Part shown: one piece after another, positions 503 to 33,024 of the stretch | Numbering within the stretch: the stretch's first letter is position 1 | Layout of the letters: each line of letters starts with the position of its first letter | From: Escherichia coli | Lineage (GTDB): Bacteria > Pseudomonadota > Gammaproteobacteria > Enterobacterales > Enterobacteriaceae | DNA: 64,000 bases | Assembly (NCBI RefSeq): GCF_024502345.1 | Contig: NZ_JALDNN010000002.1 | Reading direction: 5' to 3' (one strand) | Notes under the pieces: model-generated | Told to the model about the DNA's origin: nothing | Seen by the model: the letters and a program-made list of their open reading frames with translations, nothing else | Databases searched by the model: none | Made by a program: the position numbers and the translations under genes

Positions 503-507
503 CACCG

Positions 508-723: not shown

Positions 724-874
724 AACGTCGTCCTCCTCATGATTCCTCTCTTCAGAATGGACAATTAAGGGCGATCCGTTTGAGGAAAATGTGCGGATTC
801 TCGTGACGGCATGCTAAAAAAGAGATCTGCATAACCATTTCTCTTAAATTACAATAAATTCATGGGATTACTAA

Positions 875-986
875 GGAAGGTGCGAACAAGTCCCTGATAT
901 GAGATCATGTTTGTCATCTGGAGCCATGGAACAGGGTTCATCATGAGTCATCAACTTACCTTCGCCGACAGTGAATTCAGCAGTAA
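875..986 (+). mobile_element. IS5-family left-end fragment (IR plus first ~110 bp), interrupted
   Basis: Matches the start of the full copy at 1191 (ggaaggtgcgaacaag... through the first codons of the transposase), preceded by ctaa; breaks off at 987. Confidence 0.8.
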
Positions 987-1024
987 GGGGTCTGACGCTC
1001 AGTGGAACGAAAACTCACGTTAAG
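987..1024. repeat. Tn3-family 38-bp terminal inverted repeat (GGGGTCTGACGCTCAGTGGAACGAAAACTCACGTTAAG)
   Basis: Match to the recalled Tn3/Tn2 terminal IR, directly abutting the IS5 fragment. Confidence 0.8.
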
Positions 1025-1190
1025 CGATTGTGGCTGAGAAAAACCAAAGGATCCGGCGAGGATCCTTTGGTGTGCTGACATGACCAGTTTCTTTTGGGAT
1101 ATTTTTTCCCTGCATGAAGTCCTTTATGTCCTGATCATAATGCCATTAAAAATTCTATGCTATGGCTTCGCTATTTTAGACATTCCCTAA

Positions 1191-2386
<1,196 letters not shown>

Positions 2387-2517
2387 TTAATATAAAGACA
2401 CAAGCAGAGACATTTTTGGCACGATATAAAAACGCTAAGTTAAAAAATCACTATGACGTGTTGGGTATCAAATGTTCACTGGCATAAACCTCTGTTTCTG
2501 ATGTAAAACAGATTTTC

Positions 2518-2543
2518 TGAGGAGGCGTAAAACCTCCTCGTAC
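2518..2543 (-). terminator. possible hairpin terminator downstream of ftnB-like gene
   Basis: Inverted repeat gaggagg...cctcctc just 3' of the minus-strand stop; weak U-tract. Confidence 0.3.
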
Positions 2544-2555
2544 TGCGAAATTGAT

Positions 2556-3056
2556 TTAGTGATAGCGATCGATCACGCCAACCAGATAGTGGTCGGTTTG
2601 CTGCATGTTGATGCCCGCTTTTTTAGCGCTGCGGACTTCATCCAGAATGATTTGCAACAGCGTCCCGTCCACGATTTCCTCTTTTCTGTATCGCTTCAGG
2701 AAGTTAATCGCTGACTTATCGTTTGCTGCCTGGGCGTCTTCCGTCAAAGAGGTCAGCGCATTAATGCGCTTCTGGTAATCGCTTACCGTCTGCTCAAACA
2801 GATCTTCCAGCGTGGAAAATTCACCGCACCGGGCGTGTTGCTCCTGTAACACCGGCGTGGCGCCGCTCTGTTTGATGTATTCGTACATGCGCATCATTTG
2901 CGTCACCGTATTTTGCGCCTGATGACGCAAAAATAGTGCGGTGCCATTAAGGCTATTCTCGCTGCACCTCTGGCTGAGCTGAAGATACAAATTTGAGGTA
3001 TAAAACTCCTGATTCATTTGCGCATTCAGTTTTTGAACTATTCCGCTAGCGATCAT
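2556..3056 (-). CDS. ftnB: ferritin-like protein (FtnB-like)
   Basis: 166 aa; ferritin motifs (...KLNAQMNQEFYTSNLYLQLS..., ...ILDEVRSAKKAG...) resembling E. coli FtnB/YecI from memory. Confidence 0.75.
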   Translation of the reverse strand: MIASGIVQKLNAQMNQEFYTSNLYLQLSQRCSENSLNGTALFLRHQAQNTVTQMMRMYEYIKQSGATPVLQEQHARCGEFSTLEDLFEQTVSDYQKRINALTSLTEDAQAANDKSAINFLKRYRKEEIVDGTLLQIILDEVRSAKKAGINMQQTDHYLVGVIDRYH

Positions 3057-3330
3057 AGGACTTCCTTATTTCTTGTCATCTCAGAAAACGGTCACTCTTC
3101 GAAAAAACAACCAGAATAAAAGCGATTCTTTCGCTTTTTTTATTGCGCCTGGTTACACAGTCATATTCATTTTAAGTCGGGATGCTCCTTATTTAAATAT
3201 CCAACCCTACTATCGCATTTCTATCTGGCATTATTCTGTGATGGTGTTTCGATATTCACACTCCCTGTGCCAATCCTTTCTTATCGACAGTAGGAAACTT
3301 CCTCCGGCTATTCTGCTGAACACGATTAGG

Positions 3331-4150
3331 GGCACTGTTGCAAAGTTAGCGATGAGGCAGCGTTTTGTCTTATTCAAAGGCCTTACATTTCAAAAACTCT
3401 GCTTACCAGGCGCATTTCGCCCAGGGGATCACCATAATAAAATGCTGAGGCCTGGCCTTTGCGTAGTGCACGCATCACCTCAATACCTTTGATGGTGGCG
3501 TAAGCCGTCTTCATGGATTTAAATCCCAGCGTGGCGCCGATTATCCGTTTCAGTTTGCCATGATCGCATTCAATCACGTTGTTCCGGTACTTAATCTGTC
3601 GGTGTTCAACGTCAGACGGGCACCGGCCTTCGCGTTTGAGCAGAGCAAGCGCGCGACCATAGGCGGGCGCTTTATCCGTGTTGATGAATCGCGGGATCTG
3701 CCACTTCTTCACGTTGTTGAGGATTTTACCCAGAAACCGGTATGCAGCTTTGCTGTTACGACGGGAGGAGAGATAAAAATCGACAGTGCGGCCCCGGCTG
3801 TCGACGGCCCGGTACAGATACGCCCAGCGGCCATTGACCTTCACGTAGGTTTCATCCATGTGCCACGGGCAAAGATCGGAAGGGTTACGCCAGTACCAGC
3901 GCAGCCGTTTTTCCATTTCAGGCGCATAACGCTGAACCCAGCGGTAAATCGTGGAGTGATCGACATTCACTCCGCGTTCAGCCAGCATCTCCTGCAGCTC
4001 ACGGTAACTGATGCCGTATTTGCAGTACCAGCGTACGGCCCACAGAATGATGTCACGCTGAAAATGCCGGCCTTTGAATGGGTTCATGTGCAGCTCCATC
4101 AGCAAAAGGGGATGATAAGTTTATCACCACCGACTATTTGCAACAGTGCC
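3331..4150 (-). mobile_element. IS26 copy 1 (820 bp)
   Basis: 14-bp IRs GGCACTGTTGCAAA at both ends; flanking 8-mers differ (cgattagg vs ggcagacg), so no target-site duplication. Confidence 0.97.
3383..4087 (-). CDS. tnpA: IS26 transposase Tnp26 (234 aa)
   Basis: [25 protein letters not shown]... canonical Tnp26 sequence. Confidence 0.97.
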   Translation of the reverse strand: MNPFKGRHFQRDIILWAVRWYCKYGISYRELQEMLAERGVNVDHSTIYRWVQRYAPEMEKRLRWYWRNPSDLCPWHMDETYVKVNGRWAYLYRAVDSRGRTVDFYLSSRRNSKAAYRFLGKILNNVKKWQIPRFINTDKAPAYGRALALLKREGRCPSDVEHRQIKYRNNVIECDHGKLKRIIGATLGFKSMKTAYATIKGIEVMRALRKGQASAFYYGDPLGEMRLVSRVFEM

Positions 4151-4864
4151 GGCAGACGAACTACAGTTGCCGCGGGGCAGGTATTCAACGCTCCAGGTGG
4201 AGCCACTGGCATCCGGGGTACGCCGTCTGGAAGACTGTTATCGCGGGCTGCAGGAAAAAATCGTGCAGCTCGAAGGCAAAAAACGGTCGCAAAAACAGTT
4301 GATTGCTTCACATAAGAATCGTCCTTTTTATCATCTGTGGCACAGAAAAGGGGGCCAGCTCCCGGACGAGAAATGTGATGCCCTGCCCTGCCACTGCGGG
4401 CAGAAACACTGTCTCTGCCGCAGATCGGGGATTCAGACCTGGAGGTGGCGCAACGGGCAACCGGGGTCATCCGGCTGGCTACCCTGTGTGCTCAGTCGCA
4501 GAAAAGAATCCTGGAGCTGGAAAGGGATCTTGCCTCACAAAGTGAGGAGCTCGTTGACCTGCAGGCACATCCCTTTTTTAACCTGTGGGATAAATACCGC
4601 GACCTGATCCTGTTCTGGGGGGCGTGGTGACTTTTCTGGACTTTATCAGTGGATGTTGGGGGCATGAATGTTCCCGTTCCATAGCCACACACTGAAGAGG
4701 ACTGAAACCAGTGCCCGAAAATATCGTGTCTGTAATCACTGACGGGGTAGTTTTGTTTGCGACTTCGTCTGTTTTCTGGCTGGCCGTCGCTGGCTGGTTA
4801 GTCATCCTGACTCCGGTAATATTACGAAGAAAATTCTCGGCAAAGAAAAAAGTTAACAGAAATT

Positions 4865-5659
4865 ATGAATAACCTGGTTCCAGTTGGATCTCCGTCATCT
4901 CCCGGAACATTGCTTCCGGTGGCCATCGATTACCCTGCCGCCCTCGCCCTGCGCCAGATGGCGCTCGTGCAGGATGAACTGCCGAAATACCTGCTGGCGC
5001 CGGAAGTCAGCGCCCTGCTCCATTACGTGCCGGATCTTCACCGCAAGATGCTGCTGGTGACGCTGTGGAACACCGGCGCGCGCATTAATGAAGCGCTCGC
5101 GCTGACCCGGGGGGATTTTTCACTGACGCCGCCGTATCCGTTCGTGCAGCTGGCCACGCTCAAGCAGCGCGCCGAGAAAGCGGCCAGGACGGCAGGTCGT
5201 GCTCCCGCAGGCAGTCAGGTCCATCGTCTTGTTCCGCTTTCCGATCACCACTACGTCAGCCAGCTACAGATGATGGTGGCCACCCTGAAAATTCCGCTGG
5301 AAAGACGAAACAAGCACACCGGCAGAATTGAGAAGGCGCGTATCTGGGAGATCACAGACCGTACCGTCCGCACCTGGCTTAGCGAAGCGGTGGAGGCCGC
5401 AGCGGCCGACGGGGTGACGTTCTCAGTACCGGTGACCCCCCATACGTTCCGTCACTCCTACGCGATGCACATGCTGTACGCCGGTATTCCGCTGAAAGTG
5501 CTGCAGAGCCTGATGGGCCATAAATCGATTAGCTCGACGGAGGTCTATACGAAGGTGTTTGCGCTCGATGTCGCAGCGCGCCATCGTGTGCAGTTCGCCA
5601 TGCCGGAAGCTGAAGCTGTTGCGTTGATAAAAAAGTTAACCCCAGACCAATCTACATAG
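4865..5659 (+). CDS. tyrosine site-specific recombinase (plasmid resolvase, ResD-like)
   Basis: 264 aa; C-terminal catalytic region ...HTFRHSYAMHMLYAGIPLKVLQSLMGHKSISSTEVYTKV... typical of phage-integrase family; adjacent to partition genes. Confidence 0.8.
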   Translation: MNNLVPVGSPSSPGTLLPVAIDYPAALALRQMALVQDELPKYLLAPEVSALLHYVPDLHRKMLLVTLWNTGARINEALALTRGDFSLTPPYPFVQLATLKQRAEKAARTAGRAPAGSQVHRLVPLSDHHYVSQLQMMVATLKIPLERRNKHTGRIEKARIWEITDRTVRTWLSEAVEAAAADGVTFSVPVTPHTFRHSYAMHMLYAGIPLKVLQSLMGHKSISSTEVYTKVFALDVAARHRVQFAMPEAEAVALIKKLTPDQST

Positions 5660-8871: not shown

Positions 8872-10143
8872 TTAACCGATCCTCGCAACGGGGATATCTC
8901 TCCAGCGAGTGGTGTACGCAGGGGAGAGCATATCGCGTTTCATTTGCCAGGATGGCACAATTCCTCTACCGGCAAACCATACTTTACCCAGCCCTGAGTT
9001 GTTGATCCCGTCCAGAACCCTCATCAGCTCAGCACTGTGAGGGCGTGGCGGGCGTTCGTCGAACAGCTGCAGCTGCGAAACGCCGGAGCCGGTGAAGTCA
9101 TTCAGCATAACTCCGGCTTTGGCATACCTGTGCCCATCCCTCCAGATACGCTCCAGAGCCGTTGTGGCGGCTGCAATGATGTCCCTGGTGTCCTGAGTGG
9201 GTGTAAGAAGTTTTTCCGTAGCCACGTTGCCGTAGTAAGGCTCTTTAACGGCGAACGGAGACGTTTTGATGAAAACGGAAATATGCCGGCAATACTGGTG
9301 CTCTTTACGCAGCTTTTCAGAGGCCCGCTCTGCGTGCTGACAGATAGCCTGACGGAGTGACTCGTACTCCGTGATCTTCACGCCAAAACTGCGGCTGCAG
9401 ACAATTTGCTGTTTCGTCGGAGGGGCTTCCTCAAGCGAAAGGCAGCTTTCCCCGTTCAGTTCCCGTACCGTTCGCTCAAGGACGACAGAAAAATTTTTGC
9501 GGATGAAGGCCGGGTTCGTCAGAGCCAGATCGAGCGCGGTCTTAATGCCCAGTACATTCAGCTTGCGTGCAATACGGTTACCCACCCCCCAGATTTCTTC
9601 AACCGGCTGCAGTGAAAGCAGTTTCCGCGTTCTCTGCGGATTTCCCCTGGTCAGAGCAAGTACGCCACGAAACTGTTTCCACTCTTTTGAGGCCCACTGG
9701 GCTGATTTTGCGAGGGTCTTCGTTGGCCCGGCGCCCACGCCAATGGTAAGGCGGGTACAGTCATACACGTGCTGACGCAGCTGCCGGCCGAAGTCCTCAA
9801 GCTCCATACAGTGCTCCACGCCGGTCAGGTCGAGGAACATCTCATCAATTGAATACTGTTCCACCCTGGGGGCCAGTTCCTCCAGGCTGTTCATCACGCG
9901 CGCCGACATCGAAGCATAAAGTTCATAGTTACTTGAAAACGCATATATTTTTTCCGGGTATCTTTCGTTTTTTATCTGAAACCACGGAGTTCCCATTTTG
10001 ATCCAGCGCTTCGCCTCGGCACTGCGAGCGATTACGTTCCCGTCGTTGTTGCTCAGGACGACTATCGGCTTTCCTTTCAAATCCGGTCGGAAAACACGTT
10101 CACAGCTGGCATAGAAGCTGTTCACATCGGCCAGGGCAAACAT
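8872..10143 (-). CDS. umuC: error-prone DNA polymerase V subunit UmuC (Y-family polymerase)
   Basis: 423 aa; [22 protein letters not shown]... N-terminus and Y-family polymerase motifs. Confidence 0.95.
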
Positions 10144-10617: not shown

Positions 10618-12562
10618 TGCGCCGGGAGACCGGTAGAGATCAAGGGGTGAAAGTCCCCGACCATTGAAGGACCAGCAATCCACAAGGTCCCCGAGTCATG
10701 CGTTGCATACCGCGAGGTATGGGGCGAAGCGTTGACAGGGGTGTTGACAGGCCAGCCATTGAGCCACGAAATGTATATTAAATTACCGGGTGCCGACGTT
10801 GTACTGTTAACGGAAGGCAACATCATAGGGTGCGATACTGCGAGTGCCACATGGACCCGGCGGGGTCTGAGACCCTGGCATGTCAATACGATCTCTACGC
10901 GGGAACCGGGAGATCTCCCCTCTGACCATCTGCCAGTGTCGGAGATGGCCCGCACCGGGAAGACGAGGAGTCATAGCCGGTGATGTACGGAGAGGAGAAG
11001 TCGGACTCGCTCATAGTAGCGGCGAAGCAGGCGAACAACCCGAAAGGAGCGGAGTCAGTGGAGCGAAGGAGCGGGGCCAAGGGGAACGTGGAACAGCCAC
11101 ACATGCGCCGGACACAGAGCCGGGAAAGCATGTCACAGAGGCTGTCACGCGTGCGGGAAGCTGCGAAGCAGCGGAAGAAAGAACGGTTTACAGCATTGTT
11201 CCACCTGCTGACAGTCGAAGCACTGGAAGCCGCATTCCTCTCCCTGAGCAGGAAAGCGGCCGCCGGAGTGGATGGCATCAGGTGGATGGACTACGCCGGA
11301 AACATGAAGAACAACATAACAGATCTGCACCGGAGGCTACATCAGGGCAGCTACAGGGCGCAGCCCGGCAGGCGTCACTACATCCCAAAAGCGGATGGAA
11401 AACAACGCCCGCTCGGCATCGCCTCGCTGGAGGACAAGATCGTCCAGTATGCGCTGGTGAAAATCCTGAACGCAGTCTATGAAAACGACTTTATGGGGTT
11501 CTCATACGGGTTCAGACCCGGGCGAAGCCAGCACGATGCACTGGACGCACTGGCCACAGGGCTGGTACGCACTAACGTAAACTGGGTACTGGATGCCGAC
11601 ATCAGTCAGTTCTTCGACAGGGTGAGCCACGAATGGCTGATCAGGTTCACAGAGCATCGGATCGGCGACCGGAGCGTAATCAGGCTCATACGTAAGTGGC
11701 TCACAGCCGGGACGTTGGAGGAGGGTCAATGGCGAGCAACGGAGGAAGGCACCCCACAGGGTGCGGTCATCTCACCGCTGCTGGCAAACATATACCTCCA
11801 CTACGTCTTCGATCTGTGGGCGCATCAGTGGCGACGTCGCTATGCCACAGGCAATGTGGTAATGGTCAGATACGCCGATGACATCGTCATCGGGTTCGAC
11901 AAACGATACGATGCCCGGCGCTTCCGTATAGCCATGCAGCGCAGACTGAGGGAGTTCGGACTCACGGTTCACCCGGAGAAAACCCGTCTGATGGAGTTCG
12001 GCCGCTTCGCTGCCGAAAACCGTGCCATCAGGGGAAAAGGCAAACCAGAAACGTTCAACTTCCTCGGGTTCACGCACATCAGCGGGAAAGATCGCAACGG
12101 CAGGTTCATGCTGATACGAAAGACCCGCCGGGATCGGATGACGGCAACTCTGAAAGCCATCAAAGACGGTCTGCGAAGGCGCTGGCATTACTCAATCCCC
12201 GAACAGGGAAAATGGCTCAGGAGAGTGGTTCAGGGATACCTGAACTATCACTCGGTACCGGGCAACTTCCCCACCATGCAGAAGTTCAGGACACACGTAA
12301 CAAACCTCTGGCGCCGGGCGCTCAGGCGCAGGAGCCAGAAGGATGATACGACCTGGACGAAAGCAAACAAACTGGCAGCCGCATGGCTACCAAGGGTTCG
12401 GGTTCTTCATCCATGGCCTGTGGAGCGGTTCACCGCCAGACACCCGAGGCAGGAGCCCGGTGCGTAAATCGCGCACGCCGGGATCTGTGCGGGGGGTATC
12501 CGGTAACGGGTATCCCTACCGCGACATATTTAACAGCGTGACGATAATCCAGATCGCCTGCC
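10617..12562 (+). mobile_element. group II intron (bacterial, RT/maturase-encoding); 3' boundary approximate
   Basis: GTGCG at 10617-10621, about 360 bp structured leader, RT/maturase ORF, GNRA-loop hairpin near the 3' end; IS1 abuts at about 12563. Confidence 0.7.
10983..12467 (+). CDS. group II intron reverse transcriptase/maturase
   Basis: RT motifs incl. YADD (...MVRYADDIVIGF...), maturase domain, no endonuclease domain. Confidence 0.9.
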   Translation: MYGEEKSDSLIVAAKQANNPKGAESVERRSGAKGNVEQPHMRRTQSRESMSQRLSRVREAAKQRKKERFTALFHLLTVEALEAAFLSLSRKAAAGVDGIRWMDYAGNMKNNITDLHRRLHQGSYRAQPGRRHYIPKADGKQRPLGIASLEDKIVQYALVKILNAVYENDFMGFSYGFRPGRSQHDALDALATGLVRTNVNWVLDADISQFFDRVSHEWLIRFTEHRIGDRSVIRLIRKWLTAGTLEEGQWRATEEGTPQGAVISPLLANIYLHYVFDLWAHQWRRRYATGNVVMVRYADDIVIGFDKRYDARRFRIAMQRRLREFGLTVHPEKTRLMEFGRFAAENRAIRGKGKPETFNFLGFTHISGKDRNGRFMLIRKTRRDRMTATLKAIKDGLRRRWHYSIPEQGKWLRRVVQGYLNYHSVPGNFPTMQKFRTHVTNLWRRALRRRSQKDDTTWTKANKLAAAWLPRVRVLHPWPVERFTARHPRQEPGA

Positions 12563-13316: not shown

Positions 13317-13331
13317 GTTGGAGTCATTACC

Positions 13332-13633
13332 AACCAGTTCACCACCTACTCGCTCCGCGATTGTGGCAGTCTTCGAAATCCCCGGACGATCCGCCTTTAT
13401 GAAAGTCTTGCTCAATTCAAATCTTCAGGCTTATGGGTTACTACTCATGCTTGGTTAAATGACCGTTTCGTCTTACCGGAATCCCAGCAGAAGAACTTGG
13501 CAGAGTTGAAACGATCTTTCCTTGATCCTGCACTCAAGCAGATAAATGAGAAAACACCTTTACTTGCTAAGTATAGTATTGATGATTCAGGAAAATTTCT
13601 GTTCTCAATAATTGATAAGCAAAATCCCGTCTG
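13332..13633 (+). pseudogene. 3' fragment of a replication-initiator-like gene, 5'-truncated by IS1
   Basis: Frame open from the IS1 end; ...TTYSLRDCGSLRNPRTIRLYESLAQF... resembles the Rep_3 motif; ends at stop 13631-13633. Confidence 0.4.
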
Positions 13634-13683
13634 ACATAAATCAGCACACATGAGCCTGTCATTTGACAAATTTTTGTCATGAA

Positions 13684-14183
13684 GATGGGCGGATTTCCAC
13701 ACAGCACCGGCGCCCGGTAAGGTGGGCGGATTCCCACACGGCACCGGCGCCCGGTAAGGTGGGCGGATTCCCACACGGCACCGGCGCCCGGTAAGGTGGG
13801 CGGATTCCCACACGGCACCGGCGCCCGGCAAGATGGGCGGATTTCCACACAGCACCGGCGCCCGGTAAGGTGGGCGGATTCCCACACGGCACCGGCGCCC
13901 GGTAAGGTGGGCGGATTCCCACACGGCACCGGCGCCCCGCAAGATGGGCGGATTTCCACACAGCACCGGCGCCCGGTAAGGTGGGCGGATTTCCACACAG
14001 CACCGGCGCGCGGCAAGGTGGGCGGATTTCCACACGGCACCGGCGCCCGGCAAGGTGGGCGGATTTCCACACAGCACCGGCGCCCGGCAAGGTGGGCGGA
14101 TTCCCACACGGCACCGGCGCGCGGCAAGGTGGGCGGATTCCCACACGGCACCGGCGCCCGGCAAGGCGGGCCGATTCCCATAT
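13684..14183. repeat. tandem array of about 13.5 copies of a 37-bp GC-rich repeat
   Basis: Contiguous units g[ga]tgggcggatt[tc]ccacac[ag]gcaccggcgc[cg]cgg[tc]aag with two alternating variants. Confidence 0.95.
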
Positions 14184-14406
14184 CGACATGTATGTAGCTT
14201 GTGTTATCTGTGGATTGTGCAGCTCAGCGGGTCGCTGGTCGTATGGCGGAGTGTCCCCCGTAACCGGCCGCGTGCGGCCGCTAACGCGCAGTACGGCGCC
14301 GCGTCCCGCAGGCGGGCCGCCGTTCCCGCGCGCAGCACTGCGCACCCCCGTGGGGGACGTGCGGCAGCTGCGTGGCGGTGACCGGCACGAACCGCATGTT
14401 AGGTCG

Positions 14407-17529: not shown

Positions 17530-18446
17530 TGAATCGCCACGGATAATCTAGACACTTCCGAGCCGTTGATAATACTGGTTTTCATATTCTGTCGGTGACA
17601 TCTGTTCGCTAGAACCATGCCGACGCTTACTGTTATAAAACATTTCGATGTAATCAAAAATATCACTGCGGGCTTCTTCCCGCGTTCCGTAGATCTTTTT
17701 CTTTATCCGTTCACGTTTCAACAACTGGAAAAAACTTTCTGCAACCGCATTATCATGGCAGTTACCGCGACGGCTCATGCTACCCTCCAGGCCGTGTGAT
17801 TTCAGGAACGACTGCCACTCATGGCTTGTGTACTGACTGCCCTGATCCGAATGAACCAGCACCTGTTTTTCGGGATTACGCCGCCATACAGCCATCAGCA
17901 GTGCGTTCAGGACAATGTCCTTTGTCATCCGGGATTGCATGGACCAGCCGATAATTTTGCGTGAGAACAGATCAACAACAACGGCAAGATACAGCCAGCC
18001 TTCGTGGGTCCTGATGTAGGTTATGTCCGTTACCCAACGCTCATCAGGAGCATCCGGATTGAACTGTCGCTGGAGCCTGTTGGGTGACACGATACTGGCC
18101 TCGCCTTTACGTGCCCGCGGGCTTCGGTATCCGACCTGAGCCTTTATTCCGACACGTTTCATCAGTCTCCAGACTCTGTTTACTCCGCACTGTTGCCCGC
18201 TGTCACGCAGATCCAGATGGATTTTGCGATAACCATAGACGCATCCCGATTCCAGCCAGAACTGTTTAATCTGTCCTGTCAGTCTCAGGTCTGCCTGATG
18301 GCGTTGTGAATGCGGCTGCTGAAGCCAGGCGTAAAAACCACTGGGATGAACATCCAGCACCCGACAGAGCAGGCGAACAGGCCAGCAACAGGAGTTGTCA
18401 CGGATAAAGGCGTACCTCAGTCGGACAGCTTTGCGAAGTACGCCGC
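17530..18446 (-). mobile_element. IS3-family element fragment X (right IR plus orfB), truncated by IS30
   Basis: Terminal tgaatcgccacgg... IR at 17530; orfB with DDE motifs; orfA missing. Confidence 0.8.
17548..18360 (-). CDS. IS3-family transposase OrfB (DDE integrase domain), partial
   Basis: 270 aa; ...WVTDITYIRTHEGWLYLAVVVDLFSRKIIGW...HSDQGSQYTS... Confidence 0.85.
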   Translation of the reverse strand: MLDVHPSGFYAWLQQPHSQRHQADLRLTGQIKQFWLESGCVYGYRKIHLDLRDSGQQCGVNRVWRLMKRVGIKAQVGYRSPRARKGEASIVSPNRLQRQFNPDAPDERWVTDITYIRTHEGWLYLAVVVDLFSRKIIGWSMQSRMTKDIVLNALLMAVWRRNPEKQVLVHSDQGSQYTSHEWQSFLKSHGLEGSMSRRGNCHDNAVAESFFQLLKRERIKKKIYGTREEARSDIFDYIEMFYNSKRRHGSSEQMSPTEYENQYYQRLGSV

Positions 18447-20583
<2,137 letters not shown>

Positions 20584-21070
20584 AATTAATGGGCGGCGCT
20601 TTTTTGAAATGATTGCGCACTACCAAGCGCTGATTAACAGCCTAACCGGCGAGGCATTAACCAAACAGTCCAGCATTCCTTTATCAGACCGTGCACAGCA
20701 GATTCTTAACGCGCTCAATAGCTATAGGGCACGGCATCGAACGGGCGATCGTTATATCCGCATGCTGTTTGACTGTGCGCTGCTGTATTACTTCGATAAA
20801 TTTGGCAAAGAGCAACTATCAGAAGCGATCGAAAAGTTTTTCATCTGGGCCTATAGCTGCCGCTTAACCAGCCACGCTGTGTATATCGAAACCATGGATA
20901 ACCACGCCCGCAACAGCAAACTGTTTAAATTAATCCAGTCCGCCATTAGCCCAAAACAAGTACTGGCGCTGCCTTTAAAAACCCTCACCCCCGCTGATCT
21001 CAAGGCAAGTAAGATGGGCGATTTGGTTAAGCTATTCGAAGGAATGAAATACTATGTCGAATCCAAATAA
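20584..21070 (+). pseudogene. 3' portion of an unknown gene, 5'-truncated by the IS3-family fragment
   Basis: Frame open upstream to the IS boundary; no family recognised. Confidence 0.5.
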
Positions 21071-23084
21071 GATAACGAGCTTTTCCATTAGGCAGCTGTT
21101 AGCAAATCACGCCTCCTATCAGATCCCTATGTATCAGCGTAACTATGCGTGGGAAAAAGGCGAAATTGATCAGCTGATTCAGGATGTTGTTGATTATCAA
21201 GTCCAAAAAAAGCCTTACTACATCGGCAGCTTAGTGGTGTATCCACGGGATAATCAGCTATTTGAAGTGATTGACGGCCAGCAACGCTTTACCACGCTCA
21301 CGCTAATTGCTTTATGTTTGAAGCACTTCAGCATGTTGGCTGAAAAAGAAGGGACAACGTCTGTTAATAAAGTTGACATGAGTTGGTATCAAACGCCTAA
21401 TTTATGCTTTGAAAGCCGCGCTAACTCAACCCTCACCCTTGAAAAAATAACAGCCTTTAGCGCCTCTACTGCTAAGCATTTGTCACTAGATCCAGCCGAT
21501 ATTAATCAGTGCAACAGCGCTATTTTAAATGGCTTTAACTTGGTGCAGCAGGCGTTATCTGAGCTTGCTAAACAGCATGACCTACATCAGTTTTGTGAGT
21601 ACTTATTTGATTGGGTAAAAATCACCCGCGTCCCCGTTCCCCACGACACTGATTTAACCCATTACTTTGAGGCGATGAATAATCGCGGGGAACAGCTAGA
21701 AAAACACGAAGTGCTAAAAGCCAGAATGCTCTCTGTGCTGCAAGATGCCAGCCACCAACACCCTGAGAATAAAAGCGCGCAGGAAGTGCTCAATAAAGTG
21801 TGGAATGCCTGCGCCAATATGGAGCGTTATGTGCAGTTTGGCTTTAACCCCATCGAGCGCCAGCAGATCTTTGGCAATGAGTGGCAAAAATTTACCGCTA
21901 ACAGCTTTACTGAGCTTCATCACGCGCTAATAGCCCCTGAAAACAGAGCAGCCAACACCACAGTCGACACTCATAGTGATGAGCCAGCCGCCAAATCACT
22001 GGCTGAAATGTTGAACACACCTTATACCGATAAACAGGCAGAAACAGATAAAAATCAACCATCGCCTGAACGCTTTAACAGCGTGATTAATTTTTCTAAC
22101 TTTTTATTGCAGGTCTTAAGGGTTTACAGCCAAAAAGACATTTCTTTGGACGATAAGCAGTTAATTGATCAGTTCGAAACGCATATTTTGCACGCAGACG
22201 AGGCAGCAGAAAAAGTTAAAGCGTTTGTGTTTGCCTTATTAAAATCCAAATACCTATTTGATCACTACGTGATAAAACGCGATGCGACGGCTCAGGACAA
22301 GTGGGGCATCAAGCAATTAAAACGCTATGAGCGCAATAGCCAAAGCTACGTCAATACCTTTGCCCAAAACGATCAGCCTGATACCACTCACTCGCAATTA
22401 AATCAGCGCATTGTTTTATTACTAAGCGCCTTTCATGTCTCTACGCCCACCATGAACTACAAGCACTGGTTAACCGGCGTTTTGCATATCCTGCATCAAC
22501 TGCACGCCAAGCAACTCGATGCAGACAACTATTTAAAGGCACTCGAAAAGCTCGCCAGAAGCTTTATCTATGGGCGTTATTTGGCTAAAACAGCGGCTGA
22601 TTATTACACACTGATTTTTGATAACCCGAAGGGCTATCAACCCTTAGCGGACACGTGTTTTTTACGGTGTCGCTTGCGCTATGGTTCGATTAAAAACAAC
22701 TTTGTATTTAACTATTTAGATTATTTGCTGTGGTGCACCACCCAAGATAAGGACCTGGTGTATCGTGAGTTTGAATTTAGTTTTAGAAGCTCGGTCGAGC
22801 ATTTCTACCCACAAGATCCCTACTCTGGCGAACCATTAGAGGATGGGCCTTTGCATAGTTTTGGTAACCTATGCCTAATTAGCCACAGCAAAAACTCTAA
22901 GCTCAGCAACTACCAACCCACGGCTAAAAAAGAGCACTTTCAAGCAGCCAGCACCCAAGGCAAAATCGACTCACTCAAGCTGTATGAAATGACTCGGGTT
23001 AAAGTATGGGATGCAGATGCTATCCACAAGCATGAAACCCAAATGCTGGGATTGTTTATTAAGGATTCTGAGGGAGAAAAATGA
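21054..23084 (+). CDS. GmrSD-like type IV restriction / DUF262-DUF1524 protein
   Basis: 676 aa; N-terminal DUF262 signature (...VIDGQQRFTTLTLI...), C-terminal DUF1524-like His-Me region (...SVEHFYPQDP...). Confidence 0.75.
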   Translation: MSNPNKITSFSIRQLLANHASYQIPMYQRNYAWEKGEIDQLIQDVVDYQVQKKPYYIGSLVVYPRDNQLFEVIDGQQRFTTLTLIALCLKHFSMLAEKEGTTSVNKVDMSWYQTPNLCFESRANSTLTLEKITAFSASTAKHLSLDPADINQCNSAILNGFNLVQQALSELAKQHDLHQFCEYLFDWVKITRVPVPHDTDLTHYFEAMNNRGEQLEKHEVLKARMLSVLQDASHQHPENKSAQEVLNKVWNACANMERYVQFGFNPIERQQIFGNEWQKFTANSFTELHHALIAPENRAANTTVDTHSDEPAAKSLAEMLNTPYTDKQAETDKNQPSPERFNSVINFSNFLLQVLRVYSQKDISLDDKQLIDQFETHILHADEAAEKVKAFVFALLKSKYLFDHYVIKRDATAQDKWGIKQLKRYERNSQSYVNTFAQNDQPDTTHSQLNQRIVLLLSAFHVSTPTMNYKHWLTGVLHILHQLHAKQLDADNYLKALEKLARSFIYGRYLAKTAADYYTLIFDNPKGYQPLADTCFLRCRLRYGSIKNNFVFNYLDYLLWCTTQDKDLVYREFEFSFRSSVEHFYPQDPYSGEPLEDGPLHSFGNLCLISHSKNSKLSNYQPTAKKEHFQAASTQGKIDSLKLYEMTRVKVWDADAIHKHETQMLGLFIKDSEGEK

Positions 23085-23377
23085 GTAACGTCGGCCAGCG
23101 TGAACGCATGACCCAACAGCGCATTGTTGAGCTGTTTCAAACGGATTTAGGCTACCGCTATTTAGGTAACTGGGAATACCGCGATAACAATAAAAACATA
23201 GAAGTTGAGCTACTAACGAGCTGGCTGAAAAAGCGCGGCATAAGCGAGGCGCTGATTAATCGCGTGATTCGTCAGCTAGACAGCGCAGCGGCGCTGGGCG
23301 AAGGTAAAAAGCTCTATTACGCCAACAAAGAGGTTTATCGCCTGCTGCGTTACGGCGTGAAAGATAAAGAAGGTGCT
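23081..23377 (+). pseudogene. hsdR: type I restriction enzyme HsdR, N-terminal part (gene split by IS30)
   Basis: MSNVGQRERMTQQRIVELFQ...; frame continues in phase across the IS30 insertion to 24599. Confidence 0.85.
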
Positions 23378-24598
23378 TGTAGATTCAATCTGTCAATGCA
23401 ACACCCCTTTCAATTATCTCTTTCGGTGTTTTGAACTTCAGTGTCTTTCTCGGTCTGTTGTTTAGCTGAGCAGCAACCAGATCTAGTTCATGTTGAGTAT
23501 ATTGGGCAAGACATGTCTTTTTAGGAAAGTACTGCCGAATTAGCCCATTTGTGTTCTCATTTGTTCCCCGCTGCCAAGGACTCTGAGGATCGCAGAAGTA
23601 AACTTTAACGCCGGTGCTGACAGTAAATTCTAGATGTCTGGCCAGTTCCATTCCTCTGTCCCATGTCAGTGATTTTCTGAGTTCTGACGGTAAACTCAGG
23701 AATTTGTCGGTAAGAGCCTGATTTACTGAGACAGAATCTTTGCCCCTGAGTCTAAGGATGATCGTATAACGTGATTTTCGGTCTACAAGTGTGGCTATAT
23801 GAGAGTTTTTTGTACCTGAGACTAAATCGCCCTCCCAATGCCCCAGAGAGCGTCTGTTATCGATATTTCGGGAACGTTCGTGAATTGGTGTTCCGTTCAC
23901 TATGTTAATCGTACCTCTTTCGCCTTTGCGGGTATGACGCCTGCCATGGCGAAGGCTATGCGACCGTCGCAGATGCTGTATATTCAGGTGGTGTAGCGCT
24001 TCACGGCTACGAAAGTACAGCGTTTTATAAATTGTCTCAGGTGATATTCGCAGCGTTTTTTGACGTGGTTTTGTTCGCCTTAACCATCCTGATATTTGCT
24101 CTGGAGACCATTTCATCTCCAGCTTTTCCAGAACAAGCTTTCGCAATGGTAAATTTTGATCCAGTAAGCACGGTTTTGGCCTTTTCGCCATTCTGTTGGC
24201 TCGGTTATTAGCATCAACAGCTTTGTAATAGCGTCTGCCCCGATTACGCTGAACTTCACGTGAGATCGTCGAAGGACTGCGATTCAGCGCAGTAGCTATC
24301 GCACGAATGCTCATTTTGGCTGACAAACCAGCTCGTATCTCCTCGCGCTCAGACAGTGTCAGGTGAGCTACAGCCCGCTTACGCTCATGGGGTTTTATGC
24401 CGCCAGTATCCCTTAACATAGTGAAGATCGTTCCGGGTTTTGAACCCAGGATATTCGCTATTTCACTGAAGCCTGTTCCGTTCTTCCATAGTTCAAAAAC
24501 AGAGGCTTTTTCCTCTGCTGTAAATGTTCGTCTCATTCAAAAAACCTCCGCAACCCCATGTTTTCACATAACTGTTGCGTTGACCAATTGAATCTACA
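23378..24598 (-). mobile_element. IS30 copy 2 (1221 bp) inserted in hsdR with 2-bp target duplication CT
   Basis: IS30 IRs at both ends; ct at 23376-23377 and 24599-24600. Confidence 0.95.
23385..24536 (-). CDS. IS30 transposase
   Basis: 383-aa ORF identical in the track to copy 1. Confidence 0.95.
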   Translation of the reverse strand: MRRTFTAEEKASVFELWKNGTGFSEIANILGSKPGTIFTMLRDTGGIKPHERKRAVAHLTLSEREEIRAGLSAKMSIRAIATALNRSPSTISREVQRNRGRRYYKAVDANNRANRMAKRPKPCLLDQNLPLRKLVLEKLEMKWSPEQISGWLRRTKPRQKTLRISPETIYKTLYFRSREALHHLNIQHLRRSHSLRHGRRHTRKGERGTINIVNGTPIHERSRNIDNRRSLGHWEGDLVSGTKNSHIATLVDRKSRYTIILRLRGKDSVSVNQALTDKFLSLPSELRKSLTWDRGMELARHLEFTVSTGVKVYFCDPQSPWQRGTNENTNGLIRQYFPKKTCLAQYTQHELDLVAAQLNNRPRKTLKFKTPKEIIERGVALTD

Positions 24599-27396
24599 CT
24601 GGCCATCTTAATGAAACCGTGTGGCTGATTGACTGGAAAAATCCAGAAGCAAACGATTTTGCCATTGCCGAAGAAGTCTCTATCAAGGGTGAAAACAAAA
24701 AATGCCCAGACATAGTGCTGTATGTCAATGGTATCGCTCTAGGTGTGATTGAGCTGAAACGCTCTTCGGTGTCTGTCTCTGAGGGTATTCGCCAGAACCT
24801 CGATAACCAAAAGAAAGATTTTATCCGTAACTTCTTCACCACCATGCAATTGGTGATGGCGGGTAACGACACGCAAGGCTTGCGTTACGGCACGATTGAA
24901 ACCCCGGAGAAGTATTATCTTGAATGGAAAGAAGAGATAGAGAACGGGTATAGCCATAAGCTCGACTTTCACCTGAGCCGCGTATGCAATAAAGCGCGTT
25001 TTTTACAGATCATCCACGATTTTATTGTTTTCGATGCGGGTATTAAAAAGACCTGTCGTCACAATCAGTTCTTTGGTATTGAAGCGGCAAAACGCCATAT
25101 CGCAAGGCGTGAAGGCGGCATTATTTGGCATACGCAAGGTTCTGGCAAAAGCCTCACTATGGTGTGGCTGGCCAAATGGATACGTGAAAATGTCAAAGAC
25201 GCCCGTGTATTGATCGTGACCGATCGTACCGAGCTGGATGAGCAGATAGAAAAAGTATTCACCGGTGTTGAGGAAGATATTTATCGCACCAAAAGCGGTG
25301 CCGATTTGGTGGCGACGCTCAATCAGCCCAACCCTTGGTTGGTATGCTCTTTAGTCCATAAATTTGGTCGGCAGTCTGATTCGGAAAACGATACCGCGAC
25401 GGATGAGTTTATTGCCGAGTTAAAGAAATCCCTACCATCGGACTTTAAAGCCAAAGGTGACCTATTCGTATTTGTTGATGAATGCCACCGTACTCAATCG
25501 GGCAAGTTGCACGAAGCGATGAAGTCCATTCTGCCAGAAGCCATGTTTGTCGGCTTCACCGGCACCCCCTTGATGAAGAAAGACAAGAAAAAATCGGTTG
25601 AGGTATTTGGCCCTTACATTCACACCTATAAGTTTGATGAAGCTGTGGCCGATGGCGTTGTGCTCGATTTACGCTACGAAGCACGAGACATCGACCAAAA
25701 TGTCACGTCGCAGAAAAAGGTCGATGAATGGTTTGAAGCCAAAACTCGCGGCTTATCTCGATTAGCGAAAACCCAGTTGAAACAGAAATGGGGCACCATG
25801 CAAAAGGTGCTGTCCAGTAAATCGCGTTTGCAGCAGATTGTGAATGATATCTTGCTGGATATGGACACTAAGCCACGCCTGATGGATGGCTACGGCAATG
25901 CCATGTTGGTCTGCTCTAGTGTCTATCAAGCTTGTAAAGCTTATGAAATGTTCAGCCAAACAGATTTAGCCGGCAAGGTGGCTATTGTCACCAGTTTTCA
26001 GCCGACCGCTGCGAGCATTAAAGGGGAAGAAACCGGTGAAGGCTTAACGGAAAAGCTCTTTAAGTACGATATTTACCGCAAAATGCTTGCGGATTACTTC
26101 GAGCAACCGGAAGACAAGGCCGCTAACCGAGTTGAAGAGTTTGAAAAAGAAGTTAAAAAACAATTTATTGATGAGCCAGGGCAAATGCGCTTGCTCATCG
26201 TGGTCGATAAGTTGCTGACTGGCTTCGACGCCCCTTCGGCTACCTATTTGTATATCGACAAACAGATGGCTGATCACAATCTGTTTCAGGCCATTTGCCG
26301 CGTGAACCGCTTGGATGGCGATGATAAAGAATACGGTTACATCATTGACTACAAAGATCTGTTCCGCTCGTTGGATAAAGCGATTTCTGATTATACTCAA
26401 GGCGCATTTGATGGTTATGACAAGGAAGACGTTGCAGGGCTGCTGAAAGATCGTTTAGAGCAAGCCAAGCTCGATTTGGATAATGCGCTGGAAATGGTGC
26501 GCGCCTTGTGTGAGCCGGTAAAAGCGCCACGCAACACGGAAGACTACATTTATTATTTTTGTGGTAAGTCAGGTCTGAACCAAGACGAGCTCACCGAGAA
26601 AGAAGCACTGCGTTTAACGCTTTATCAGAACGTTGCCAAACTGCTGCGTGCGTTCGCCAATATCGCCAATGAAATGCCTGATGCAGGCTATTCTGCGCAA
26701 GATGTAGACTCGATAAGAACAGAAGTGGCTCATTTTGAAAAAGTCCGTGACGAAGTAAAACTGGCCAGTGGCGATTTGGTAGAAATGAAACGCTTTGAGC
26801 CTGCGATGCGCCATTTGTTAGATATGTATATTCGTGCGGATGACAGCGAAGTACTGATGGATTTTGAAGAGCTGGGGCTTATTGAGCTCATTGTCGAAAA
26901 AGGCGCTGATGCCGTGGAGGCTTTGCCTGATAGTATTCGCAAGAATCAGGAAGCCATGGCCGAAACCATCGAAAATAACGTGCGTAAAACCATCGTTGAT
27001 GAAAACCCGGTTAACCCCAAGTATTACGAGCAAATGTCGGTGTTATTGGATGAGCTGATTGAGCTTCGTCGCCAAAAAGCGATTGAATATCAAGAGTATT
27101 TGGAAAAAATCCGCGAGCTGTCTCGTAAGGTTATACGTCCGGAGCAGACAGCGGCTAACTATCCGCCATCGATGGACTCTAATCCAAAACGCGCGTTTTA
27201 CGATAATTTTGGTCAAGATGAATTGCTGGCTACCAAAATAGATAGTGCCATTCGTTATACCAAAAAAGCGGATTGGGTCGGAGATCGCTTTAAGGAGCGA
27301 GAAATTGCCAATGCGGTGCGAGAAGAAACGACGGGGTATGAGGTGGATATTCAGGGTGTAATGGAATTGGCAAAAGCGCAAAAAGAGTACCATTGA
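24599..27396 (+). pseudogene. hsdR: HsdR C-terminal part (nuclease and SF2 helicase domains)
   Basis: PD-(D/E)xK-like ...PDIVLYVNGIALGVIELKRS..., Walker A ...HTQGSGKSLT..., DECH box ...FVFVDECHRTQ... Confidence 0.85.
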
Positions 27397-28109
27397 TGCC
27401 TAAGGTAGAAATTGGTTCTATTGCGATGCAGTTAAATCGTAAGGCAATTAAAAACCTTCATATCAGCGTGTTGCCACCTGATGGGCGTGTGCGTGTTTCT
27501 GCTCCTGAATCTATGACAGAAACCGCAATCCGTATGGCAGTGATCAGCCGCATTCCTTGGATCAAGAAACAGCAGAGTGTTTTTGCCAAACAACCTCGCC
27601 AATCTGATCGAGCAATGGTTAGCGGTGAATGTCATTACCTGTGGGGCAGGCGTTATCGTCTGAATCTTATCGAGCGTTCCGGAAAGCATGAAATCAAGCT
27701 AGGTCGTGGTCGATTGCATTTATATGTCAATCCCGCAACAACGCTTGAGAACAAGGCACTGGTACTGAACTCATATTATCGAGATGCACTTAAAACGCGA
27801 ATCGCTGAGTTATTGCCTGTTTGGGAAGATAAGATCGGCGTTAAAGCTGTAGATTGGGGAATTAAAAAGATGAAAACCAAGTGGGGCAGCTGCAATATTC
27901 AGGCAAAGCGCATTTGGCTAAATTTAGAGCTTGCTAAAAAGCCACCGGAGTGTTTGGAGTACATCCTAGTGCATGAATTGGTGCACTTGCTTGAGCGTAA
28001 TCACAATGAACGCTTCAAGGGGTATATGGACAAGCTACTTCCCGATTGGCGAGAGCGCAGAGATTTGTTGAAGCGGATGCCCTTGGCGCACAACGATTGG
28101 GTGTACTAG
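27393..28109 (+). CDS. DUF45/M48-family zinc metallopeptidase (YgjP-like), commonly linked to hsdR
   Basis: 238 aa; HExxH motif ...ILVHELVHLLERNH...; 4-bp overlap with hsdR stop. Confidence 0.75.
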   Translation: MMPKVEIGSIAMQLNRKAIKNLHISVLPPDGRVRVSAPESMTETAIRMAVISRIPWIKKQQSVFAKQPRQSDRAMVSGECHYLWGRRYRLNLIERSGKHEIKLGRGRLHLYVNPATTLENKALVLNSYYRDALKTRIAELLPVWEDKIGVKAVDWGIKKMKTKWGSCNIQAKRIWLNLELAKKPPECLEYILVHELVHLLERNHNERFKGYMDKLLPDWRERRDLLKRMPLAHNDWVY

Positions 28110-28452
28110 GAAAATTATGCAGAGTTTGCATGGTTAGCCTGATTATGTATGTGGCGCGTAATTTGAGATAAACTTGATAGTAAAAGCGGGAAATGGATTT
28201 CATTTCTCCGATATTTTGCTCAGGTGCTGTCGCTAAAAGTGTCAAGATTCTATCTTTACGCTTGGCGGCCAATACTCCCGCAGTACCTACCCAGAAAATA
28301 GCCAATATTGGGATCAACTTAACAGTTTTGGCTTTGTTTATTATAAAAACCAGCACTTTCAATTAGTTGAATGGTTTATTCGCTAGTTTATGTGAACTAC
28401 CATTTTGAGAGGGCTGAAAGTTGCTCGATTACTTAAAAATAACTTTACCTAA

Positions 28453-29646
<1,194 letters not shown>

Positions 29647-29839: not shown

Positions 29840-30952
29840 TTAGAATTGGTAGGTCATACCAACAGCAACGATGTTGTCGGTTGCAACGCCAGATTTTTTG
29901 GTAAAATCACTTTCATCGATCAGGTTGATCTTATAGTCAACGAAAGTGGACATATTCTTGTTAAAGTAATAAGTCGCGCCCACGTCGATGTATTCAACCA
30001 GATCCTGGTTACCGAACGCACCAATATTTTCACCGCGAGAGTGTAGGTAAGCGATGGACGGACGCAGGCCGAAATCAAACTGGTATTGAGCAACGGCTTC
30101 AAAGTTTTTCGCCTTGTTCGCGATATGGTCATCACCGAAGACTGTCATATTCTGAGTTTCAGAATAAGTTGTAGCCAGGTAAATGTTGTTTGCATCATAT
30201 TTCAGGCCCGTAGCCCATACTTCAGCAGTTTTACCAGAGGCATTCAGAGGGCTGGCTTTAGCATAGGATACCTGTCCATCAGTACGGTCAGATTTTGCAT
30301 AGGTTGCAGCAACGCCAAATCCTTCATAATCGTAAGTAGCTGACAGACCAAAGCCATCACCATTAGATTCAACTTCGTCGCGGCCTTTCCAGTTGTTCGC
30401 TTTTGCAGCACTATCATTTTTACCTTGATACTGCAAAGCAAAGTTCAGACCATCAACCAAGCCGAAGAAATTATTGTTACGATAGGTCGCGACGCCAGTA
30501 GCACGCTGGGTCATAAATACATCAGTCTGAGTCCAGGTATCTCCACCAAACTCCGGCAGCACGTCAGTCCAAGCGCCAACATCATAAGCTACACCGTAGT
30601 TGCGACCATAGTCGAGCGAACCATAATCGCCAAAGCGAAGCCCTGCAAACGCAAGACGAGTTTTATCTTTATCAGAACCTTCAGTTTCAGAACGGTTACC
30701 TTTAAATTCGTACTCCCACTGACCAAAACCGGTTAACTGGTCATTAATCTGAGTTTCACCTTTGAAACCCATACGAGCATAAGTTTTATCCCCGTCATCA
30801 CTAGCTGAAGAAGAGAAGTAATGCTTTGCATTAACTTTGCCGTACAGATCCAGTTTGTTACCGTCTTTGTTATAGATTTCTGCCGCTTGTGCAGACATTG
30901 CCATCAGGACTGATGCTGCAACCGCAGAAAGTGCCACTGTGATTTTTTTCAT
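29840..30952 (-). CDS. general outer-membrane porin (OmpC/OmpF/PhoE family)
   Basis: 370 aa; signal peptide [23 protein letters not shown]; [17 protein letters not shown]... and C-terminal ...VAVGMTYQF. Confidence 0.9.
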
Positions 30953-31502
30953 TTTTTTTCCTTTAGATTGAACTTTTCAACAGAAAAGAAGTCACTTAGG
31001 GAAGATGTTTATCTTTTTTTGATTTGCATTTCAAGTTTTTTAAATAAATATCGAGATATTTTCGTTATCATGATCACGAAAACACTGATGTAGCCCCCTG
31101 AAACACCGGACAGTAGCTGTATCTCCAGATAAGAGATAGGCTTGAATATATGTCTAACACTAACGCCAATTTTGAGATGACCGGGATCCTGTTAGGGCAA
31201 GAAGTCCGTAAACGTAAAACTCCTCAGGAGAAGATCGCCATTATCCAGCAGACGATGGAGCCGGGTATGAATGTCTCCCATGTCGCCCGCCTGCATGGTA
31301 TCCAGCCCAGCCTGCTGTTTAAGTGGAAGAAGCAATATCAGGAAGGCAGCCTCACCGCCGTTGCGGCTGGAGAGGAAGTCGTTCCTGCTTCTGAGCTTAC
31401 TGCTGCTCTGAAGCAGGTCCGGGAGCTTCAGCGCCTTCTGGGCAAGAAAACGATGGAAGTTGAGATCCTGAAAGAAGCCGTGGAGTACGGTCAGTCGCGA
31501 AA

Positions 31503-33024
<1,522 letters not shown>

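Follow-up and report, generated by a model that had tools for sequence, protein, structure and literature searches.

We consider it highly probable that the 64-kb stretch of Escherichia coli DNA analysed here (the window) holds, between positions 20584 and 28408, what remains of the right-hand part of a type I restriction-modification island, in which hsdR was made null by an IS30 insertion and the upstream part was subsequently lost through a rearrangement involving IS911 and IS30. This account builds on the anatomy of the locus (Table 1), on an exact empty site in an intact island, on the presence of the same hsdR::IS30 allele in two other plasmids and on the absence of hsdM and hsdS from the window.

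Table 1. Features of the hsdR::IS30 locus and its left edge (positions in the window)
Feature	Position	Strand	Remarks
IS3-family element fragment, orfB side	17548..18446	-	Element other than IS911; left flank of IS30 copy 1
IS30 copy 1	18447..19667	+	Inverted relative to copy 2; 0/1221 mismatches to copy 2
IS911, right part	19668..20583	+	orfB and terminal ...GACCACTTCA; adjoins the DUF262 remnant
First DUF262 gene, 3' remnant	20584..21070	+	Intact gene 1419 nt; homology from nt 933
GmrSD-family gene	21054..23084	+	GmrSD_N and GmrSD_C (DUF262/DUF1524); intact; between hsdS and hsdR
hsdR 5' fragment	23081..23377	+	Codons 1-99; ATG overlaps the GmrSD stop (ATGA)
Target duplication CT, left copy	23376..23377
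IS30 copy 2	23378..24598	-	1221 bp; identical sequence annotated 'IS30-like element IS30 family transposase' (WP_001254932.1) in NZ_CP061756.1
IS30 copy 2, ends	23378; 24598		IRR (transposase C-terminus side) at 23378; IRL at 24598
IS30 copy 2, transposase ORF	23385..24536	-	383 aa, intact
Target duplication CT, right copy	24599..24600
hsdR 3' fragment	24601..27396	+	Codons 100-1030; PD...ELK motif, SWI2/SNF2 motor, domain 3, C-terminal region
Right-hand homology block to intact island	24601..28408	+	99.9% identity
YgjP-like M48 metallopeptidase gene	27396..28109	+	Intact; overlaps the hsdR stop codon; last in the locus

A single IS30 insertion splits hsdR

When the element is excised in silico together with one of the flanking CT dinucleotides, that is, when 23081-23377 is joined to 24601-27396, the product is a frame of 3093 nt with one terminal stop, encoding 1030 residues and reading ...KDKEGA-GHLNETVWLIDW... 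across the junction. Retention of both CT copies instead gives 39 stops. The rebuilt protein is identical at 1030 of 1030 residues to the annotated HsdR of E. coli PO06101 (WP_032177721.1). Moreover, on the chromosome of that strain (NZ_CM129865.1) the site is empty and has a single CT, GGTGCTGGCCAT, which in its uninterrupted context reads ...AAAGAAGGTGCTGGCCATCTT.... Two-bp flanks agree by chance in 1 of 16 cases, and the flank match by itself is not conclusive; it is the existence of an exact empty-site homologue, beyond the CT match, that makes the case for insertion decisive. The initial annotation had placed IS30 copy 2 at 23378-24598 with CT on both sides and had claimed a continuous HsdR of about 1030 codons after excision with one CT; the former is accurate to the base, and the latter is the frame described above. 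Its reading of a simple IS30 insertion with a 2-bp duplication that splits the HsdR gene is supported by this frame and, in addition, by the match to a family model and by the domain composition.

The rebuilt HsdR scores 557.4 bits against TIGR00348, well above the cutoff of 284.55, and the 3' ORF taken separately scores 1567 bits against PADLOC REase_I. Both the PD-(D/E)xK nuclease and the SF2 translocase domains expected of HsdR are present, the Pfam assignments being HSDR_N (residues 6-202), SWI2_SNF2 (255-486) and T1R_D3-like (532-685). The insertion, at codon 99/100, therefore lies inside HSDR_N, the N-terminal nuclease domain. The PDIV...IELK segment, located 3' of the insertion point, aligns with the nuclease motif of EcoR124I HsdR (type IC; PDB 2W00). 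Although EcoR124I HsdR is the nearest relative of solved structure, the likeness is distant only (E about 1e-34, 124 bits), with an alignment over residues 104-695 that takes in the D..ELK block and the motor domains. In the window the frame is interrupted by 1221 bp plus 2 bp, and the HsdM and HsdS partners, present in the intact and sister loci, are missing. The window hsdR is a member of the family by descent, within a non-functional remnant.

The inserted element shows hallmarks of the IS30 family: a size of about 1.2 kb with imperfect terminal inverted repeats, a single intact transposase ORF and a 2-bp duplication. The terminal repeats are 26 bp long and agree at 23 of 26 positions, and a search of the window for IS30 terminal repeats returned four matches against none expected. 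Compared with IS30 of E. coli (1221 bp, 26-bp repeats, 383-aa transposase, 2-bp duplication), copy 2 shows no difference. IS30 is known for its 2-bp target duplication and for nearly palindromic hot-spot targets (PMC9333248). The site in hsdR looks similar to two unrelated IS30 targets, and by manual count 8 of the first 12 positions in the arms flanking its CT are symmetric. An insertion through the copy-out-paste-in hot-spot pathway, with one IS30 entering a near-palindromic site at codon 99/100 and duplicating CT, would account for the present arrangement.

The insertion cuts codons 1-99 off from the other part of the nuclease domain and leaves the 931-codon remainder with neither promoter nor start codon. 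The allele is therefore probably null for restriction. As an ORF, the 5' fragment runs on into IS30 up to position 23434 and gains 18 foreign residues (117 aa in total), and the longest residual ORF in the 3' fragment starts at a GTG at 24619 and extends over 925 aa to 27396. The latter retains the D..ELK nuclease motif and every motor domain, so that one could picture it still yielding an N-truncated, partly active HsdR. We regard this as highly improbable, however. No sigma-70-like promoter was found in 22800-25000, the GTG is preceded by no obvious ribosome-binding site, and a simple scan for promoters and terminators returned none able to drive either the hsdR 3' fragment or the GmrSD gene. 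The outward -35 element of IS30 is located in IRR (PMC9330008), and here IRR points away from the 3' fragment. Furthermore, half of HSDR_N is gone, and no HsdM or HsdS is at hand for loading onto DNA. Judging from the sequence, low-level synthesis of a truncated HsdR from the GTG is conceivable, but such a protein, with HsdM and HsdS absent, would lack a partner for DNA recognition. A polar effect of the insertion on the M48 gene, which lies downstream and overlaps hsdR, is also probable.

The allele is shared with two complete plasmids

Both hsdR::IS30 junctions are found at 100% identity (400 bp) in two complete plasmids, NZ_CP061756.1 of E. coli 873.10 and NZ_CP034659.1 of E. coli ATCC 98082. 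Insertion site, orientation and junctions are the same as in the window, and in one of the two the full 2221-bp stretch from junction through IS30 to junction is identical. In both sister plasmids, the type I restriction endonuclease genes next to an IS30 transposase are already annotated as incomplete. Because both junctions recur without a mismatch in two complete plasmids, hsdR::IS30 is an inherited allele and not an artefact. The initial annotation had allowed for an assembly artefact, and the window, with two identical IS30 copies and many other insertion sequences, does consist of sequence prone to mis-joining. Nonetheless, there is only a negligible chance that the assembler misplaced a repeat into a gene that is in truth intact: the element is complete, its 2-bp duplication is perfect and the junctions are matched in two independent assemblies, on which grounds we rejected this explanation.

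The three loci differ in other respects. Unlike the window, both sister plasmids keep hsdM and hsdS; in NZ_CP061756.1 the two genes (WP_032177720.1 and WP_001395521.1) show no difference from their counterparts in the intact chromosomal locus and adjoin hsdR::IS30. In this plasmid IS26 cuts the 3' end of hsdR, whereas in NZ_CP034659.1 IS66 splits IS30, the halves of which are oppositely oriented and separated by about 328 kb. The entire 64-kb window was not found in a single record of either the plasmid or the E. coli collections, the best matches being mosaic.

The left part of the island is missing

The intact locus of PO06101 has the gene order hsdM-hsdS-DUF262-GmrSD-hsdR-M48, with hsdM, hsdS and hsdR encoding WP_032177720.1, WP_001395521.1 and WP_032177721.1, respectively. 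It resides in a chromosomal element that lies between ssb and yjcB and has three tyrosine recombinases, whereas the window locus is plasmid-borne. At the DNA level the two are 99.9% identical over 20584-23377 and 24599-28408; the window differs in having IS30 inside hsdR and in lacking hsdM and hsdS as well as two-thirds of the first DUF262 gene, counted from its 5' end. On the right, homology to the island stops at 28408, just ahead of an IS5 (transposase at 28598-29614, minus strand). Only the GmrSD-family and M48 genes survive as intact frames of the locus, the start of the former being placed by NCBI annotators at either 21054 (676 aa) or 21129 (651 aa).

The absence of hsdM and hsdS from the window, already claimed in the initial annotation, holds in every search of the 64 kb: neither gene turned up in tblastn (E<=5) with the island HsdM and HsdS and a further HsdM fragment of P1 type, in blastn with the 12 kb that make up the left part of the intact island, or when the ten ORFs of at least 380 aa, the largest of the window, were scanned with NCBIfam models. 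The reason is not that this hsdR is a solitary gene but that an IS911 end truncates the operon at 20583/20584. The cut falls within the first DUF262 gene, 2.8 kb upstream, and the IS911 end is linked to IS30 copy 1; homology to the island begins at 20584, immediately past the IS911 terminus, which makes this position the left edge of the surviving island. Had the rearrangement been something other than a deletion, hsdM and hsdS might persist in another part of the replicon or genome, outside the 64 kb covered here. Another type I system encoded elsewhere could not complement the family-specific HsdR fragment.

The flanks of IS30 copy 1, GC and AC, do not form a target duplication. The IS911 part is annotated as 'IS3-like element IS911 family transposase' in matching records. 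Counted separately, each junction of copy 1 is common in E. coli, the right one (IS30-IS911) occurring in about 353 records and the left one (IS3-family element-IS30) in about 205. The left junction was inspected in CFT073, and there IS30 has the same IS3-family element on either side. The CFT073 copy is itself flanked by GC and GT, with no perfect duplication, and mismatched flanks are therefore weaker evidence for recombination than are the differing flanking elements. PO06101 has an IS911::IS30 copy of its own, in which IS30 is truncated and the canonical left flank is not readable.

Identical inverted IS30 copies flank 3.7 kb, an arrangement reminiscent of a composite transposon (18447-24598) that might have carried the DUF262 remnant, the GmrSD-family gene and the hsdR 5' part in as a unit, hsdR not having been hit in situ. 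This scenario is very improbable and was rejected. The outer flanks are GC on the left and CT on the right, with no duplication around the pair; hsdR is continuous across copy 2 and the duplication surrounds copy 2 alone. In addition, NZ_CP061756.1 has the same hsdR::IS30 with only one IS30 copy. An inversion between the two copies was likewise rejected, as copy 2 has kept its duplication and the hsdR halves are collinear.

Instead, the left edge points to a separate event, by which hsdM, hsdS and nt 1-932 of the first DUF262 gene would have been lost later and in this lineage only. The surviving DNA begins exactly at the end of an IS911 carrying IS30 copy 1, whose flanks come from two different IS3-family elements. 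Such a hybrid-flank pattern is expected either when two IS30 copies in direct orientation recombine, resulting in a deletion, or when a cointegrate forms and is resolved.

Order of events and significance

The insertion most likely preceded the loss of hsdM and hsdS, because the same allele adjoins intact hsdM and hsdS in NZ_CP061756.1. This suggests that restriction was lost first and modification later, an order obtained by parsimony over only three related molecules. The type I system would thus be dead twice over. By the established logic of restriction-modification systems, self-restriction is avoided only if restriction is lost ahead of modification. It is then tempting to ask whether the insertion was selected as an r-minus m-plus state, providing methylation without restriction to a mobile plasmid, with hsdM and hsdS becoming dispensable only afterwards. 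The sole safe order of loss would fit this scenario, as would the persistence of the allele in three diverged plasmids, in one of which hsdM and hsdS are identical to those of the intact system. However, three related molecules represent one inheritance event and no repeated selection, and the added damage at all three loci (the IS26 cut in NZ_CP061756.1, IS66 within IS30 in NZ_CP034659.1 and the missing hsdM and hsdS genes of the window) looks like relaxed constraint. On balance, we find selection for such a state unlikely. More doubtful still is an extended version, according to which selection on P1-like or F-like plasmids preserved hsdR::IS30 because it turned the type I system into a methylase-only self-protecting module, and the GmrSD-family, type IV-like nuclease, possibly transcribed from the IS911 end, became the sole working defence gene once hsdM and hsdS had been lost.

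Overall, the locus is a case of ordinary IS-driven decay, a dead type I remnant of a kind already annotated, and the hsdR::IS30 finding as such has no bearing on an open question. In practical terms, the hsdR ORFs of 117 aa and 925 aa should be annotated as one pseudogene, and no working type I system should be ascribed to this segment of the replicon. The locus offers a small, clean example of the stepwise decay of a plasmid defence island driven by insertion sequences, in which restriction would have gone through a single IS30 hop and the modification and specificity genes through an IS911/IS30-associated rearrangement, while the embedded GmrSD-family gene survives.

Insertion of IS30 into a genuine hsdR

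The initial annotation read hsdR as a single frame inactivated by IS30 with a 2-bp target duplication, and in silico excision bears out its coordinates, junction peptide and codon count. Joining 23081–23377 to 24601–27396, that is, removing IS30 copy 2 together with one CT, gives 3093 nt with one terminal stop, encoding 1030 residues; with both CT copies retained, the joined frame contains 39 stops. The CT is present directly outside each end of the element (23376–77 and 24599–600), whose 26-bp ends, TGTAGATTCAATCTGTCAATGCAACA and TGTAGATTCAATTGGTCAACGCAACA, are identical at 23 of 26 positions, and the insertion point falls at codon 99/100. By itself, agreement of two flanking base pairs would arise by chance in 1 of 16 cases. 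The decisive evidence for a real insertion is the empty-site homologue. In E. coli PO06101, the chromosome (NZ_CM129865.1) has this locus without IS30 at 99.9% DNA identity, its empty site (...AAAGAAGGTGCTGGCCATCTT...) has a single CT, and its annotated HsdR (WP_032177721.1) agrees with the rebuilt protein in all 1030 residues, which supports a simple insertion.

The rebuilt HsdR scores 557 bits against NCBIfam TIGR00348 (hsdR; cutoff 285), and Pfam assigns to it HSDR_N (6–202), SWI2_SNF2 (255–486) and T1R_D3-like (532–685) domains. The alignment with its closest solved relative, EcoR124I HsdR, starts at residue 104 and takes in the conserved PD...ELK nuclease block. Given this alignment and the extent of HSDR_N, the insertion lies in the nuclease domain, upstream of the catalytic motif. 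The 5′ fragment continues 18 codons into IS30, forming a 117-aa ORF (23081–23434), and the longest 3′ ORF (925 aa) starts with GTG at 24619. No recognisable ribosome-binding site was found upstream of this GTG, nor any sigma-70-like promoter in 22800–25000. The outward-facing −35 of IS30 sits in IRR (PMC9330008), and IRR of copy 2 is the 23378 end, directed away from the hsdR 3′ fragment. From these features we strongly infer that hsdR lost its function through the insertion.

IS30 is a copy-out-paste-in element that prefers either nearly palindromic hot spots or its own ends and makes characteristic 2-bp direct repeats (PMC9333248). The hsdR target, gataaagaaggtg CT ggccatcttaatgaaa, shows partial symmetry about the CT, its arms matching at 8 of the 12 first positions (manual count). 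Unrelated IS30 insertions in a Citrobacter plasmid and in an IncFIB plasmid of E. coli have similar targets, which is why megablast alignments with these records extend 13–18 bp beyond the IS30 ends. Because of this symmetry and resemblance, hsdR::IS30 looks like a normal hot-spot-type event.

Features of the window and genes of the intact PO06101 locus
Feature	Position	Strand	Remarks
umuC (Pol V)	8872–10143	−	
Group II intron reverse transcriptase/maturase	10980–12467	+	
Tandem array, 37-bp unit	13682–14180		13.5 repeats, 93% match
IS3-family element other than IS911, orfB side	17548–18446	−	left flank of IS30 copy 1
IS30 copy 1	18447–19667		identical to copy 2 in sequence, inverted relative to it
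IS911, right part	19668–20583		orfB side; joined to IS30 copy 1
First DUF262-type gene, remnant	20584–21070		
GmrSD-family gene (DUF262-type)	21054–23084		intact; GmrSD_N and GmrSD_C domains
hsdR, interrupted	23081–27396		
IS30 copy 2	23378–24598		1221 bp, complete
IS30 copy 2 transposase ORF	23385–24536	−	383 aa, intact
M48 gene	27396–28109		intact; 99.6% identical to PO06101 counterpart
IS5 transposase	28598–29614		
ompC-type porin gene	29840–30952		370 aa
IS3-family element	31150–32384		
umuC (Pol V)	53167–54471	+	
Group II intron reverse transcriptase/maturase	61755–63113	+	
Intact locus, gene 1: hsdM			806 aa
Intact locus, gene 2: hsdS			463 aa
Intact locus, gene 3: DUF262			472 aa
Intact locus, gene 4: GmrSD-family			651/676 aa
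Intact locus, gene 5: hsdR			1030 aa
Intact locus, gene 6: YgjP-like M48 metallopeptidase			237 aa

Truncation of the operon

In the PO06101 chromosome, ssb and yjcB flank the intact RM island, which has two DUF262-type genes between hsdS and hsdR. Three consecutive tyrosine recombinase/integrase genes directly upstream may represent its vehicle; on the plasmids, IS1 cuts this part (265–5037 of the locus in NZ_CM129865.1) beside mrk fimbrial genes. Homology of the window to the island is limited to 20584–23377 and 24599–28408. Its left edge corresponds to nt 933 of the first DUF262 gene, the remnant of which directly adjoins the IS911 terminus ...GACCACTTCA at 20583, and the operon upstream of the surviving GmrSD-family gene is cut at this IS911 end. 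As initially annotated, neither hsdM nor hsdS of any kind was found within the 64-kb window. Rather than being solitary, hsdR belongs to an operon truncated by a second IS-associated event.

IS30 copy 1, flanked by GC and AC with no target duplication, connects two different IS3-family elements through their orfB sides, in a head-to-head arrangement. Taken singly, both of its junctions are common in E. coli: the right one occurs in about 353 records and the left one in about 205. Since CFT073, the one left-junction record inspected, has the same IS3-family element on both sides of IS30, the pairing in the window looks like a product of IS30–IS30 recombination. In the simplest reading, one IS30 copy would have resided in an IS911 inserted in the DUF262 gene and the other within the second IS3-family element; recombination between these directly oriented copies would have removed or separated everything between them, hsdM and hsdS included.

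The stop codon of each gene overlaps the start of the next at both the GmrSD–hsdR (ATGA) and the hsdR–M48 boundary, suggesting that the three genes were probably co-transcribed and that the IS30 insertion should be polar on M48. The GmrSD-family protein, 100% identical to that of PO06101 across the 651 residues annotated there by NCBI and matching HEC-06, Orf5 and SspE-like in PADLOC, might still function on its own as a nuclease against modified DNA.

The window itself is a plasmid mosaic with SopA, an scr sucrose operon, a Tn3-family transposase and many IS elements. The presence of two umuC and two group II intron genes in 64 kb suggests that several backbones contributed to the plasmid. 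The 37-bp array probably represents iterons of a replicon remnant that is flanked by IS1 and an IS110-family fragment; the surrounding region (13330–14385) has matches of about 97% in many E. coli plasmids, in which the feature annotated at this place is a replication initiation protein.

An inherited allele

The possibility that hsdR::IS30 is an assembly artefact is rejected: a search of 5426 complete E. coli genomes with 400-bp probes found both junctions at 100% identity in exactly two records, NZ_CP061756.1 and NZ_CP034659.1. The whole junction–IS30–junction stretch (2221 bp) is present in only 1 of 72,556 plasmid records. The allele is inherited, not private to the molecule studied here. 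In the 116-kb plasmid NZ_CP061756.1 of strain 873.10, PGAP already labels the two hsdR pieces as incomplete genes around the IS30 transposase; upstream hsdM and hsdS encode proteins identical to those of PO06101, and IS26 cuts the hsdR 3′ end. The ATCC 98082 plasmid NZ_CP034659.1 (454 kb) has the left junction, adjoining hsdM-hsdS-DUF262-GmrSD, at 411 kb and the right one at 82 kb, in opposite orientation. The separation of the two halves by about 328 kb, together with an IS66 interrupting this IS30, indicates that a large IS-mediated rearrangement followed the original insertion. This plasmid has the same hsdR′-M48-IS5-ompC-IS3 arrangement as the window, where the plasmid-borne porin gene is bracketed by IS5 and an IS3-family element. 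For one insertion allele common to three differently damaged molecules, the best explanation is that IS30 hopped once in an ancestor and that IS-mediated decay then proceeded independently.

All three plasmids share hsdR::IS30, every other lesion is private to one of them, and one plasmid retains unaltered hsdM and hsdS. On this pattern, loss of restriction most likely came first, leaving an r-minus m-plus state, and that of hsdM and hsdS followed in the window's lineage. Loss of restriction before modification is the only order without self-restriction. Overall, the initial observation is confirmed and its interpretation supported, and this is an ordinary case that public records already annotate. 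What our analysis adds is context: an hsdR that did not stand alone, a second IS-associated truncation and an allele acquired by descent.
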